Made by a program: the position numbers and the translations under genes. The notes beneath the pieces were generated by a model. The model saw nothing but the letters and a program-made list of their open reading frames with translations. It was not told the DNA's origin and searched no databases. 64,000 nt of DNA from contig CAVONQ010000010.1 in the NCBI GenBank assembly GCA_963697335.1, positions 1 to 64,000 on the forward strand. The letters are read 5' to 3'. This DNA comes from an uncultured cyanobacterium (GTDB taxonomy: Bacteria > Cyanobacteriota > Cyanobacteriia > PCC-6307 > Cyanobiaceae). Of this stretch, positions 17,735-22,844 are shown piece after piece; position 1 is the stretch's first letter, and the number at the start of each line of letters is the position of its first letter.

Positions 17735-18646
17735 CTAGCTGCCCTGACACCCAGGGAAGATCAAATCCGCCGCCTGCCGCGCATCACTCAGCACCTGAAA
17801 GAGCACGCTGGGCGATTCCTTCAGCAGCTCGATCCAGTGGCCGAGATAGGCAGCGTGGCTCTCGATCTGGCAGCCGATCTCCAGCCGCTGGCCGAGTAGC
17901 ACGGCGCCGAGCTCGGCGACCAGCTCCTCGCGGGCGTAGAGGGGGCAGCCCATGCGGCCACCAAGATCCCGGTTGAGCCGGGACTCGTGGCCCGTGGAGT
18001 GGATGGCTTCGTGGGCCCAGGTGGCATAGAGCGCTGCGCTGGAGTGGAAGGCGGCGCGATCAGGCAGCTGGATGCGATCGATGGCCGGGGCATAGAAGGC
18101 GCGATCGCCGCCATGGCCGACGGGCACGCCCCAGGCGGAGAGGCTGGCTTCTGCCCTGGCGAGCCGCTCGGGCTCTGGCCGCACCTGGGGCGATTCGCTG
18201 GCCTGGCGGCTGGCGATCAGGCCATCGAGGGCCTCGCCCTGCAGATCGGCGGCATTGAAGATCGCCACGGGGCGGAAGCTGGCCCAGCTGCGGAGCACCT
18301 TCTCGCCGCCTTCTGCTTCCTCCTCGCGGGAGTGCAGCTGGGGCCTCAGGATGCGGACGGCCTTGGAGCCCTTCTTGGGCACGATGCCGAGCTTCTTGGC
18401 CTCGCCGAAGCCGCACCAGAAGGGCAGTGCTGAGCCACGAAGGTGCATGCCCAGGGTGAGCAGGATGGGATTGGCGCCGCTGTAGCGCTGGCCGGAGAGC
18501 AGATTGACGTGATGGCCGCCGCCTGTGGCATCCCAGGGCCGGCGCCAGGGGTTGGCGCCCCGCTCCATCAGGGCGATGAGATCGGCGACCATTGCCTCCT
18601 GGGGAGAGGGACCGGAGTGGGCGCGGCGTGAACGGGAGCTGGCCAT
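17735..18646 (-). CDS. ardC: ArdC-like antirestriction protein (DUF1738 ssDNA-binding + zincin-like domain), copy 1
   Basis: PWRRPW, YSGANPILL, AFYAPAIDRIQLP, HEAIHSTGHESRLNR, YAREELVAELG, HAAYLGHW. Confidence 0.88.
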   Translation of the reverse strand: MASSRSRRAHSGPSPQEAMVADLIALMERGANPWRRPWDATGGGHHVNLLSGQRYSGANPILLTLGMHLRGSALPFWCGFGEAKKLGIVPKKGSKAVRILRPQLHSREEEAEGGEKVLRSWASFRPVAIFNAADLQGEALDGLIASRQASESPQVRPEPERLARAEASLSAWGVPVGHGGDRAFYAPAIDRIQLPDRAAFHSSAALYATWAHEAIHSTGHESRLNRDLGGRMGCPLYAREELVAELGAVLLGQRLEIGCQIESHAAYLGHWIELLKESPSVLFQVLSDARQAADLIFPGCQGS

Positions 18647-19618
18647 GGCAGGCGGAGCGTGGGCCGACCATGAGGCATCCCTCGCGACGGTTTTCAGCTC
18701 TCGTGAGCCTTAGGAGCTTGCTGAAAAACCCGGCCATCTCTGCGAAAATGGGCCAACTGCCCAGTCCAGATGCGAGGTCACCGGGAGCGCAGCGGCTCCC
18801 TGTTCTCCTACGTGTCGATTGAGGAGCGGATCCCGACCAGTCATCCGCTGCGGCGGATTCGGAAACTGGCGGATCAGGCTCTCGATCGACTCAATCCCAC
18901 CTTCTGTGAGCTCTACGCCGCAGAGGGCCGGCCCTCGGTGCCGCCAGAGCAGCTGCTGCTGGCCTCGTTGCTGCAGGCGTTCTACGGGATCCGCTCGGAG
19001 CGGCTGCTGCTCGAGCAGCTCCACTACAACCTGCTGTTCCGCTGGTTTGTGGGGCTGAGCCCGGATGATCCGATCTGGCACCCCACCACGTTCACCAAGA
19101 ACAGGGAGCGGCTGCTCAATGACGAGGTCATGGGGCGCTTCCTGGAGAAGCTGATGGGTGCTCCGGAGGTCAAGCCGCTGCTCAGTGACGAGCACTTCTC
19201 AGTCGATGGCACCTTGCTGCAGGCCTGGGCCTCCCATGCCTCGCTGGAGCGGATCGATGGGCAGGACGATCCACCGCCGCCGCCGTCAGGCCCTGGCGAG
19301 GGCTTTGGCGCTCCAAAGCCCGGCAAGAAACGGGCCAAGGGTGATTTCCGCGGCATCAAGCTCAGCAACAAGACCCATCGCTCCGGCGTCGATCCCGACG
19401 CGCTGCTGTGCCGTAAATCCAAGGCCCATCCGGCGCTACCCAGCTACCGGGGGCACGTGCTCATGGACAACCGCCATGCCCTGATCGTCGATTGCAGCGT
19501 GACGCAGGCGACGGGCACTGGGGAGCGGGATGCCGCGAAAGCGATGGCGGCGTCGTCCCGGTGCCCACCAGAAGACGATCGGTGCCGACAAGAACTACGA
19601 CTGTGATGATCCTGGCAA

Positions 19619-19775
19619 CCCCATCATCAGCAGATCTGACCCGAACTACGACCGGCCTGGTCAGCTCAGTGCCTTTCTTAGTGATCTGTCGATCTGCATT
19701 GATGGGGCCGATCAACAGGGAAGGTTCGTGACCTGATACGAGCCTGGTCGAGAGGCCCCATCACAGTCCTGTCCG
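19619..19775 (+). ncRNA. Predicted IS110 bridge RNA (target-binding and donor-binding loops)
   Basis: gaactacgac 19643-19652 = target left flank 19592-19601; atacgagc 19736-19743 = element end 21043-21050; catcacagtc 19759-19768 = reverse complement of left junction 19599-19608; enclosing stems present. Confidence 0.75.
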
Positions 19776-19817
19776 TCTTCCCCGCTGATCGCTCCTCCCC
19801 ACCACCATCTGGCAGCG

Positions 19818-20900
19818 ATGGCTCCACCAACCTTGACACAGTCCGACTCTCTGCGGACTCCTGATGTCGTGATCGGCGTTGACACCCACAAGGACATCCA
19901 TGTGGCTGTGGCCCTGGCCCCCAATGGCGGCAGGCTCGGCGATTGCCGGATTCCCACAACCCGCAAGGGCTATGACGAGCTGATCACCTGGTCGGAGCAT
20001 TTCGGCTACGCACCGGTCTTTGCCGTCGAGGGCACCGGTTCGTTCGGAGCCGGGCTGTGCCGCGAGCTTGTCGATGCTGGCTACGAGGTCGTCGAGGTGA
20101 ACCGCCCCGATCGCTCCACCAGACGCCGCCTCGGCAAGGACGACGCCATCGACGCCGAGGCCGCTGCCCGAGCGTGGATCGCTGGCACGGCGACGGTGAC
20201 GCCCAAGGCAGGCTCCGAGAGGGTGGAGATGATCCGGATGCTCAAGTGCGCCAAGGATTCGGCCACCGACAGCCGCACCCGGGCGATCAACCAGATCAAG
20301 GCGATCCTGGTGACCGCTCCGGCTGCACTGCGTGAGCGGCTGGAGCATCTGCACCGCGGCGCCCTGATCCGGGCCTGCGCGGCCCTGAGGCCCGGCCTGC
20401 TGGATGCCCCAGTGGCGGCGGCCAAACGGGCACTGCGCAGCCTGGCTCGCCGTGTTCAGGCCCTGGAAGCGGAAATCGCCGAGTTGCGGGACGACCTCGA
20501 TCAGCTCACCCAGGCTGTTTGCCCTGCCCTGCGCCAGACCTTTGGCGTGGGAGTCGACAACGCCGCCACCCTGCTCACTGCGGCTGGCGACAACCCGGAG
20601 CGCCTGCGCAGCGATGCTGGTTTCGCGGCGCTCTGCGGCGTCAATCCCCTGCCGGCAAGCTCAGGCAAGACCAACCGCCATCGCCTGAATCGGGGAGGGA
20701 ACCGCCAGGCCAACGCGGCCCTGCACCGCATCGCCGTGGTGCGGCTGCGATGGGATGAGCAGACCCAGTCCTACGCCGAGCGCCGAACAGAGCAGGGGCT
20801 CTCGAAACCGGAGATCCTGCGCTGCCTCAAGCGTTTCATTGCCCGCGAGGTGTTCCGAATCCTCATGGGCGGTCCAGCTGTGCGGCTGAAGAAGGTGTGA
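19818..20900 (+). CDS. IS110 recombinase/transposase (DEDD RuvC-like + C-terminal Ser domain)
   Basis: IGVDTHKD, AVEGTG, KDDAIDAEAAA, PLPASSG, RLNRGGNRQANAAL. Confidence 0.93.
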   Translation: MAPPTLTQSDSLRTPDVVIGVDTHKDIHVAVALAPNGGRLGDCRIPTTRKGYDELITWSEHFGYAPVFAVEGTGSFGAGLCRELVDAGYEVVEVNRPDRSTRRRLGKDDAIDAEAAARAWIAGTATVTPKAGSERVEMIRMLKCAKDSATDSRTRAINQIKAILVTAPAALRERLEHLHRGALIRACAALRPGLLDAPVAAAKRALRSLARRVQALEAEIAELRDDLDQLTQAVCPALRQTFGVGVDNAATLLTAAGDNPERLRSDAGFAALCGVNPLPASSGKTNRHRLNRGGNRQANAALHRIAVVRLRWDEQTQSYAERRTEQGLSKPEILRCLKRFIAREVFRILMGGPAVRLKKV

Positions 20901-21778
20901 GTCCACAAGGGGCACCAGCCCAGGCTCCCGCCAACCAGGCCGCCCGCTGCCCCGTTGCGGGCGGCCTGGTTGGCGGATGGAGAGCCGGACGCATCTCCGT
21001 CATGGCATCGCCGAAATGCTGCGCCAAGGGGGTTGACGATCTATACGAGCATCACCAAGGGATTCGTCGCCGAGATGCGCCGCATCGGCGTCACACCTCA
21101 CGTGGCTCAGAACACCGCCCGCTCTGGTGGTTCCGCCATCGATGGCCGCACCACCCGCCACGAGGGCTACGCCAAGTCGATCAATGCCCGCCGCGGCATC
21201 GAGAAGGTGTTTGGCTGGATCAAACAGTGGGGCGGCCTGCGCCAGTTCAAGGTGCGCGGCACCGAGAAGGTGAGTGCGGTGTTTGGCCTGCACGTGATCG
21301 CCTACAACCTGATCCGCCTGGGCAACCTGCTCAAACCGGCGATGGCGACGGCATGAACAGGTGGTTGCCCAGAGGTGTGGCCAGGTGGCCGCGATCAGGG
21401 AGCCCAAAAGGGGCAAAACACGCCAAAATCGGGAGTTCTGAGCCGCTGAAACGCTGAAAACCAGCCCGAAAGGAGCTGCATCAGCTCTCAGGAGGGGAAA
21501 ACGCGGCTTCTCAGGCTGGTTTTTCCGCAAACTCCTAGAGGCTCCCAGGGAATGATGCTGGCAAGCGTAACCCAGCGATTGTTCGGATCGAGCATGCCCC
21601 CAAGGGGGGCATGAAAGTCACCTCTCCTCAATGGATAGCTGACCGTTGTGCTGAAAAACGTACATTTTCAGGTCAGCAAATTCTTCTAGCCCACTAATGG
21701 CTGATCTGCTCTCATTCTAGCGTGAGACCCTGACTGGAATCCACTGCGCCGCAGGTGATCTAGGTTCCACAGCAAGCT

Positions 21779-22373: not shown

Positions 22374-22844
22374 AGAGTCCGCTCGAAAACCCGGCCATCT
22401 CTGCGAAAATGGGCCAACTGCCCAGCCCAGATGCGAGGTCACCGGGAGCGCAGCGGCTCCCTGTTCTCCTACGTGTCGATCGAGGAGCGGATCCCGGCCA
22501 GTCATCCGCTGCGGCGGATTCGGAAACTGGCGGATCAGGCTCTCGATCGACTCAATCCCACCTTCTGTGAGCTCTACGCCGCAGAGGGCCGTCCCTCAGT
22601 GCCGCCAGAGCAGCTGCTGCTGGCCTCGTTGCTGCAGGCGTTCTACGGGATCCGCTCGGAGCGGTTGCTGCTGGAGCAGCTCCACTACAACCTGCTGTTC
22701 CGCTGGTTTGTGGGCCTGAGCCCGGATGATCCGATCTGGCACCCCACCACATTCACCAGGAACAGGGAGCGCCTTCTCAATGACGACGTCATGGGGCGCT
22801 TCCTGGAGAAGCTGATGGGTGCTCCGGAGGTCAAGCCGCTGCTC
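22374..22844 (+). mobile_element. Second, 3'-truncated copy of the IS5 element
   Basis: Near-identical to 18713-19183 including MRGHRERSG...; identity stops after ccgctgctc; degenerate left TIR. Confidence 0.88.

Follow-up and report, generated by a model that had tools for sequence, protein, structure and literature searches.

Does an insertion sequence (IS) that lies inside another IS sit there by chance, or did its own guide RNA bring it there? The question is raised by positions 19602 to 21053 of the DNA analysed here (the window, 64,000 nucleotides from an uncultured cyanobacterium), where an IS110-group element splits the transposase gene of an IS5-family element. An earlier note on this DNA had read, in the left non-coding end of the IS110-group element, a bridge RNA with four guide segments programmed against the IS5 gene. 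We consider it highly probable that 19602-21053 is an IS110-group IS with a DEDD/serine recombinase and a bridge RNA guided to a site in the IS5 transposase gene. This is carried by sequence matches, by the covariation of guides with flanks and of paired bases within the RNA fold, by the empty site and by the recurrence of the same target elsewhere.

An IS110-group element inserted in an IS5 transposase gene

To define the element, relatives were fetched from public genomes and their ends were compared. The relatives share the left start 19602 and the right stop 21053, giving an element of 1452 bp on the + strand with non-coding ends of 216 nt (left) and 153 nt (right). The range 19592-21065 proposed earlier reached beyond the element into the flanks, by 10 nt on the left and by 12 nt on the right. 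The boundary is ambiguous by 1 nt, because the last C (core position 2) is common to element and target. The element is present in one copy in its own genome. The parts of the locus are as follows.

19602..21053, + strand: whole IS110-group element (conserved ends in relatives, uninterrupted IS5 copies, contig joint)
18710..19601, + strand: left part of the host IS5 (repeat similarity from about 18710; Pfam DUF772)
21054..21535, + strand: right part of the host IS5 (Pfam DDE_Tnp_1_6 and DDE_Tnp_1; repeat similarity ends at about 21535)

The IS5 transposase frame starts at 18770 and ends at the GAC of Asp279, with a frameshift near 19551-19556; it resumes on the right at the ACC of Thr280 and stays open to 21356. 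The insertion point therefore lies between the Asp279 and Thr280 codons, in the motif GADKNYD-TKGF, which agrees with the earlier placement of the target in GADKNYD. An intact relative of the host IS5 (L139:1431-2570) scored 224.5 bits against NF033581 (IS5 family, cut-off 140) and 194 bits against the IS1182 model, under the cut-off of 270. Its Pfam matches are DUF772 and DDE_Tnp_1, the latter at residues 224-365, and the insertion point falls within this second match. From motif shapes, D147, D275 and E329 are candidates for the IS5 catalytic residues, Asp275 being presumably the second catalytic Asp. A PDB sequence search with the IS5 transposase returned no solved relative.

The empty site was seen in two ways. 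In G022, a complete genome from another genus of the family, GAC is followed directly by ACC, in frame, in eighteen uninterrupted IS5 copies. In addition, a joint in contigs of the metagenome run X1 passes from 19600 to 21053 and skips exactly 1452 bases (depth 83.6, 2 contigs). These observations show that the insertion was scarless: there is no target duplication, and removal of the 1452 bases restores the empty site exactly. A two-base AC core had been considered, as AC occurs at both junctions and as a single AC in the IS5 copy of contig C6 of this genome. It was rejected because relatives differ after the right end and because the 18 G022 copies read GAC-ACC.

Target guides and the flanks that they match

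The four guide strings of the earlier note were all found where it had placed them. Those facing the target are listed first.

19643..19652, + strand: left target guide GAACTACGAC, 10/10 identical to the IS5 left flank 19592-19601
19674..19682, + strand: right target guide, pairs with the top strand 21054-21062
19683..19685, + strand: invariant GAT, complement of the element's last three bases, kept in relatives

In IS5 the left half of the target is AAC TAC GAC and the right half ACC AAG GGA. The left guide would pair with the bottom strand. The right guide pairs through six Watson-Crick and two G:U pairs, with a mismatch at the third position. Read by hand, the longer string TTTCTTAGTGAT (19674-19685) forms nine Watson-Crick pairs, two G:U pairs and one mismatch with 21051-21062, as had been claimed. 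Its assignment as right target guide holds for 19674-19682 only, since the last three letters (19683-19685) pair with the element's own right terminus. By comparison with known bridge RNAs, this GAT may correspond to the donor core (TC) together with one handshake base that faces the A of the donor.

Matches of this kind are rare by chance. When the left end, less its first 10 nt, was shuffled 20000 times with its dinucleotides kept, the flank 10-mer recurred once and the reverse complement of the junction 21 times, and any 8-mer of the element's last 14 nt recurred in 242 shuffles.

The relatives, whose recombinases are 68-91% identical, fall into about six guide classes with correspondingly different sites; the insertions examined in classes B-E lie between genes. 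For 23 distinct insertions, the 9 nt of left flank next to the element were compared at every offset with the left end of the same insertion. At least 8 of 9 positions matched in 13 of them, and all 13 matches are at offset 39-42, where 19643-19652 lies; the match was only 6-7 in the other 10. Control flanks taken from unlike insertions reached at least 8/9 in 3 of 448 trials. The right guide, that is the segment before GAT, also changes from class to class, and its pairing partners are the bases with which the right flank begins. The identification of a bridge-RNA element of the IS110 group is thus borne out by guide and flank covariation as well as by the Pfam and NF033542 matches given below.

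A compensatory change at the fourth position after the core, between the right guides of the window and of G022, was also considered. This reading is weakened by the metagenome copy L148, because it joins a G022-type guide to a window-type flank.

Donor guides, handshake bases and the shared core

The remaining guides face the ends of the element itself.

19736-19743, + strand: left donor guide ATACGAGC, recurs at 21043-21050 near the right end
19736..19745, + strand: left donor guide in full, identical to 21043-21052 except for one letter
19759..19768, + strand: right donor guide with handshake bases CATCACAGTC, exact reverse complement of 19599-19608, spanning the left junction
19602..19610, + strand: right donor arm, opening the left end (start invariant in 16/16 aligned relatives)
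21033..21053, + strand: right terminus, with a -35 hexamer TTGACG at 21033-21038 and the left donor arm at 21043-21053

The left donor guide had been given as 19736-19743. Its match to the element end stands, and the guide reads on to 19745 with one mismatch. The right donor guide proper (19759-19766) is the complement of the core C and of the element's first 7 nt, and the handshake bases 19767-19768 pair with target positions 8 and 7. Cross-loop handshake pairing is described for IS621 (PMC11208158). Two kinds of change among relatives bear on these assignments. In class E, a C-to-G change is found in both the left donor guide and the right end. The handshake bases are TC in classes A-D, where the flank ends in G, then A or G, then the final C; they are GT in class E, where the flank ends in A then C. 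The four guide assignments, as deduced from the sequences, are thereby supported as fitting the bridge-RNA scheme set out in that paper.

The core C ends 23/23 left flanks and 12/12 recovered right ends, and it is the sole base common to donor and target throughout. The base preceding it is T in the donors and A, G, C or T in the target flanks; an identical two-base core as in IS621 was not seen in these 23 flanks and 12 right ends. At the left junction of L017/L091, the core C of the flank is preceded by T, where the guide and two sister insertions have A. Such a T is the remnant that a mismatched two-base core resolved towards the donor would be expected to leave.

A two-loop fold shared by relatives

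With the same high confidence as for the explanation of which it forms part, we propose that the left end encodes, at roughly 19617-19792, a bridge RNA some 175 nt long, in which stems enclose two guide loops. Sixteen distinct left ends were aligned and the four guide segments were held unpaired, a constraint which favours a two-loop layout. The resulting consensus fold has six helices and 35 pairs: the target domain and the target loop are closed by one helix each and the donor loop by three stacked helices, and a small hairpin lies inside the donor loop.

19619..19707, + strand: target-binding domain (covariation; closing helix 19619-19623/19703-19707)
19630-19640/19688-19697, + strand: target loop stem (5/10 pairs changed on both sides)
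19653-19673, + strand: inner hairpin of the target loop (folds in 13/16 relatives from differing sequences)
19709..19791, + strand: donor-binding domain (constrained fold, covariation)
19709-19716/19784-19791, 19720-19724/19776-19780 and 19728-19732/19771-19774, + strand: outer donor stems (fold)
19746-19749/19754-19757, + strand: inner hairpin of the donor loop (fold)

Standard pairs occupy 91.4% of the alignment cells, as compared to 29.6-41.9% when the partners are slid by 1-3 columns. Changes on both sides were found in 10 of the 35 pairs across the 16 left ends; the two outermost donor stems hold 5 such pairs. The covariation score was 0.235 as compared to 0.039-0.098 for the slid versions, and none of 500 shuffles reached the observed value. 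The claim that stems enclose both loops is therefore upheld by the constrained fold and by covariation in the 16 relatives.

Two class C copies (L096 and L110, genome G260) carry an insertion of about 30 nt in the region of the right donor guide, at about +155 to +190 of the left end. In these copies the flank-guide match is only 6/9.

Recurrence of the target site

We then looked at where copies with the same guide sit. Of 401 sampled genomes of the family, two contain the 22-nt stretch that carries this guide: the present genome has it once and G022 has it three times. Among themselves the G022 copies are 100% identical, and to the window copy they are 91% identical. Copy a lies in IS5 at the same Asp-Thr site. 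It is itself interrupted at the stop codon by a 1.27-kb IS3-type element in the opposite orientation (L116:7699-8963; Pfam HTH_21, rve and rve_3), which makes a triple nesting. Copy c also lies in IS5, with a left flank from another IS5 subfamily (99.9% vs 82.8% identity to L139). The right flanks of copies c (L149) and a (L116) are 99.8-99.9% identical over more than 2.7 kb. The shared right flank with different left flanks suggests recombination between IS110 copies or segmental duplication. Copy b interrupts a transposase gene of IS1595 type (Pfam Zn_ribbon_IS1595 and DDE_Tnp_IS1595), at a codon run that has the 12 nt AACTACGACACC in common with the IS5 site.

A scan of metagenome contigs gave two further copies. 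In L148 the element lies in IS5 with both junctions present; L147 has a flank of only 17 nt, of which the 14 next to the element are those of IS5. Run X1 contains a 1007-nt contig across the same left junction with 5 differences. Same-guide copies are thus mostly in IS5 (two in G022, L148 and run X1), with one G022 copy in IS1595. The eventuality raised earlier, that most copies would sit in targets other than IS5, is therefore not what is observed.

The distribution of the 12-nt site itself is in line with these placements. All 13 exact sites of G022 are inside IS5 or IS1595, and its 10 free copies belong to IS5 (4) and IS1595 (6). Fourteen further IS5 copies of G022 with one left-guide mismatch are all unoccupied. 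Among 395 genomes at least 90% complete, the 12-mer occurs at least 7 times in four (33, 11, 10 and 7 copies); most have 0-2 copies, as with a reversed-pattern control. In run X1 the word depth is about 100-650 for the IS5 parts and 15-20 for the IS110 body, showing that most IS5 copies in that community are unoccupied. The earlier description of the target as a multicopy IS5 applies to G022, where 20 IS5 sites were seen, and to the metagenomes. It does not apply to this genome, which has four broken pieces and no free exact site.

The genomes with 33 and 11 copies of the 12-nt site, G260 and G077, have no element of this guide class; G260 has class C elements.

Recombinase, right end and predicted promoter

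The element contains one recombinase gene, followed by a conserved inverted repeat.

19818..20900, + strand: recombinase gene, 360 aa (Pfam, NCBIfam and PDB matches)
20927..20977, + strand: GC-rich inverted repeat of about 21 bp, directly after the stop codon (kept in 5/6 aligned right ends)

The recombinase matches PF01548 (DEDD_Tnp_IS110, 82.5 bits), PF02371 (Transposase_20, 63.5 bits) and NF033542, 'IS110 family RNA-guided transposase' (166.5 bits, cut-off 140). In the PDB it matches the ISCro4 transposase (E 1.2e-13) and the IS621 transposase 8wt6 (E 3.6e-12). The DEDD residues D22, E71, D109 and D112 and Ser282 were read from the ISCro4 alignment, and they would be equivalent to the corresponding IS621 residues. 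As compared to the G022 copy, dS (synonymous divergence) is 0.29 and dN/dS (the ratio of nonsynonymous to synonymous divergence) is 0.149. By this sequence measure the recombinase is under purifying selection.

The inverted repeat is probably a transcript-end hairpin, judging from its sequence and position. It is without a T run, and the terminator scan gave no terminator-like site there. When the two ends of the element are joined in silico, TTGACG is placed 18 nt from a TG-extended -10 GATGAT (19605-19610); this is a consensus match only. At the integrated junction the -35 matches 3/6 only, and a strict sigma-70-like promoter scan found no promoter within the integrated element.

Proposed mechanism and alternative explanations

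By analogy to IS621, the element would form a circle whose joined ends complete a promoter (-35 TTGACG, 18 nt, TG-extended -10 GATGAT), from which RNA and recombinase would be made. One RNA loop matches both halves of the IS5 site and the other the joined ends of the element, and the bridge RNA would hold circle and target together. Strand exchange would occur at the invariant C, the base before it being free to differ between donor and target. The product would be a scarless, orientation-specific insertion splitting the DDE domain of the IS5 transposase. In this account expression, chemistry and promoter use are proposed, and so is any benefit to the element.

Several observations weigh against this explanation. 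The right target guide is imperfect: its third base pairs in class D but is regularly left without a partner in classes A, B and E. The class C guide matches its own flanks at only 6-7 of 9 positions, and the G022-type right guide fits the L148 flank no better than the window type does. Without constraints, the consensus fold gives two helices only. One of them, 19700-19708/19754-19762, would bury half of the right donor guide; it is invariant, neither supported nor excluded. An Rfam search of 19400-21300 gave no bridge-RNA family, only chance microRNA-type matches to the right-end hairpin, which come from the inverted repeat 20927-20977. No circle junction or back-joint was found in the metagenome contig runs, and a single raw-read run aligned 0 reads. 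The only RNA trace is a 273-nt metatranscriptome contig covering 19644-19916 with no differences. Its depth is 2.7 and it could be DNA, so that it is weak evidence of transcription. Finally, this genome has a single copy and 0 free exact 12-nt sites.

Three rival explanations were weighed. The window copy could have arrived inside an IS5 composite with both IS5 ends kept, inherited or mobilised in trans by other IS5 transposases, and the window would then record one old insertion and not repeated targeting. The window and G022 copy a are about equally diverged in the IS5 flank (about 89-90%) and in the IS110 body (about 91%), the window IS5 is decayed by a frameshift, and the element is single here, all of which speaks for a composite. 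Against this stand the three identical G022 copies in three contexts (left flanks of two IS5 subfamilies and one IS1595 gene), which require recent separate insertions at the same sequence. A composite would explain the arrival of the window copy only, not the specificity, and we regard it as rather unlikely. The donor loop could also have been misread, 19736-19745 and 19759-19768 being kept for structure or protein binding and owing their likeness to the ends to a short terminal inverted repeat. The ends are indeed near-palindromic, so that a match to one partly matches the other. Moreover, the helix 19700-19708/19754-19762 appears without constraints, and the donor segments hardly vary, leaving a thin covariation of one C/G change. 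Yet that single change is matched in guide and right end, bases 19767-19768 vary in step with the target flank, as expected of handshake bases, covariation is seen in the stems that enclose the loop, and the layout is that of IS621. We therefore hold a misread donor loop to be very unlikely.

There is even less reason to believe that IS5 is an accidental or secondary target reached through a short half-match, the preferred site being elsewhere. Half-match off-target insertion is reported for IS621 (10.64898/2026.08.31.748434), and at the IS1595 insertion the match is confined to 9 nt on the left and 3 on the right. However, the left guide is 10/10 identical to IS5, the right guide pairs at 8/9 positions including G:U, G022 has no 12-nt site outside IS5 and IS1595, and five placements are in IS5. 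Guidance to IS5 by the element's own RNA thus remains our preferred explanation.

A further step, that this guide class is a dedicated parasite of other IS and not a chance lander, is a possibility that we think less probable than its opposite. The 13 of 13 sites of G022 lie in two unrelated transposase genes, and entry is always in the sense orientation, so that transcription of the host IS could express an otherwise promoterless RNA and gene. Each insertion kills a rival transposase and keeps the IS ends, so that the composite could still move in trans. If this reading were true, the element would be a natural RNA-guided 'anti-transposon' shaping the IS5 load of picocyanobacteria. As the earlier note had suggested, the choice of target may be adaptive, in offering a safe site and killing a competitor, and the element may be active or reprogrammable.

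The host IS5 and the state of the element in this genome

At two places, behind 19551 and behind 19556, contigs of run X1 have one base more than the window. The window IS5 has therefore lost two single bases, and its frame is broken upstream of the insertion. Four IS5 pieces were found in this genome, all defective.

18710-21535, + strand: interrupted IS5 copy (IS110 insertion plus frameshift)
22386-22844, same orientation: IS5 5' fragment of 459 bp, 97% identical to the start of the interrupted copy, 0.85 kb downstream
contig C8: IS5 fragment, a defective piece
contig C6, about 154129-154130 (G000, L005/L123): only other long IS5 copy, with a 230-bp deletion and without two bases at the target

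In the C6 copy one AC of the ACAC run is gone at the insertion point, these being the first two bases of the right target. Slippage is the simplest origin of this loss, but it may also stem from imprecise loss of an earlier insertion. The idea of an excision footprint is unsupported: the copy also has its 230-bp deletion, slippage in ACAC is simpler, and IS621 excision is reported to leave the donor site intact, which counts against a footprint. Given the single copy and the lack of free exact sites, the element, though perhaps intact, may be stranded in this genome.

Upstream of the IS5, window positions 17735-18646 (- strand) encode a 303-aa protein of the anti-restriction type, in which an ArdC N-terminal domain is combined with a zincin-like metallopeptidase domain. 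This places the IS cluster in or beside a larger mobile region.

Comparison with known systems

Within the literature covered, full-text searches found no IS110-family element aimed at an IS5 transposase gene, though the supplementary target tables of two 2024 papers may list such elements. Transposon-on-transposon targeting is itself already reported, for IS4321/IS5075 and Tn21 ends. IS4321 and IS5075 belong to the same superfamily and their target is likewise inside another transposable element. They differ in that their guide RNA is in the right end and their target is the non-coding terminal repeat of a Tn3-type transposon, whereas the present target is inside the IS5 transposase frame, and once in IS1595. 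ISPpu9, ISPpu10 and ISPa11 (IS110/IS1111) use a multicopy repetitive extragenic palindromic (REP) repeat as landing site, with an own site for each guide class. The cyanobacterial classes B-E are likewise intergenic. REP repeats are host sequences, in contrast with the guide class described here, which uses other IS. The best solved-structure sequence match is the ISCro4 transposase (PDB 9t56), the match covering both domains.

The closest comparison is with IS621 of E. coli (Durrant et al. 2024, PMC11208160; Hiraizumi et al. 2024, PMC11208158). Both elements have DEDD RuvC-like and serine Tnp domains and a left end longer than the right, which encodes (here, as predicted) an RNA with a target loop and a donor loop. 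In both, the left guides have the sequence of the top strand, the right guides are its complement, and each right guide is followed by handshake bases. Scarless insertion at a short core is also a common feature. In IS621 a promoter is completed at the circle junction, and the joined ends of the present element would form a candidate one. The two sequences are only distantly related, and the present element is known from sequence alone. The IS621 core is CT with a nearly invariant T, whereas here the donor core is TC and only C is shared by the 23 left flanks. The natural target of IS621 is a REP element, in contrast to a protein-coding site in another IS, and the target guide here leaves the third position after the core unpaired.

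The known mechanism is unchanged by this element. It offers a clean natural case of bridge-RNA retargeting, in which one guide class left intergenic sites and now sits in the coding sequence of other transposons. In the ecology of mobile elements, it points to RNA-guided competition between IS in small cyanobacterial genomes. For tool building, it provides a GC-rich orthologue: natural insertions directly show its guides, its handshake bases, the single base shared in the core and the position at which a mismatch is tolerated.

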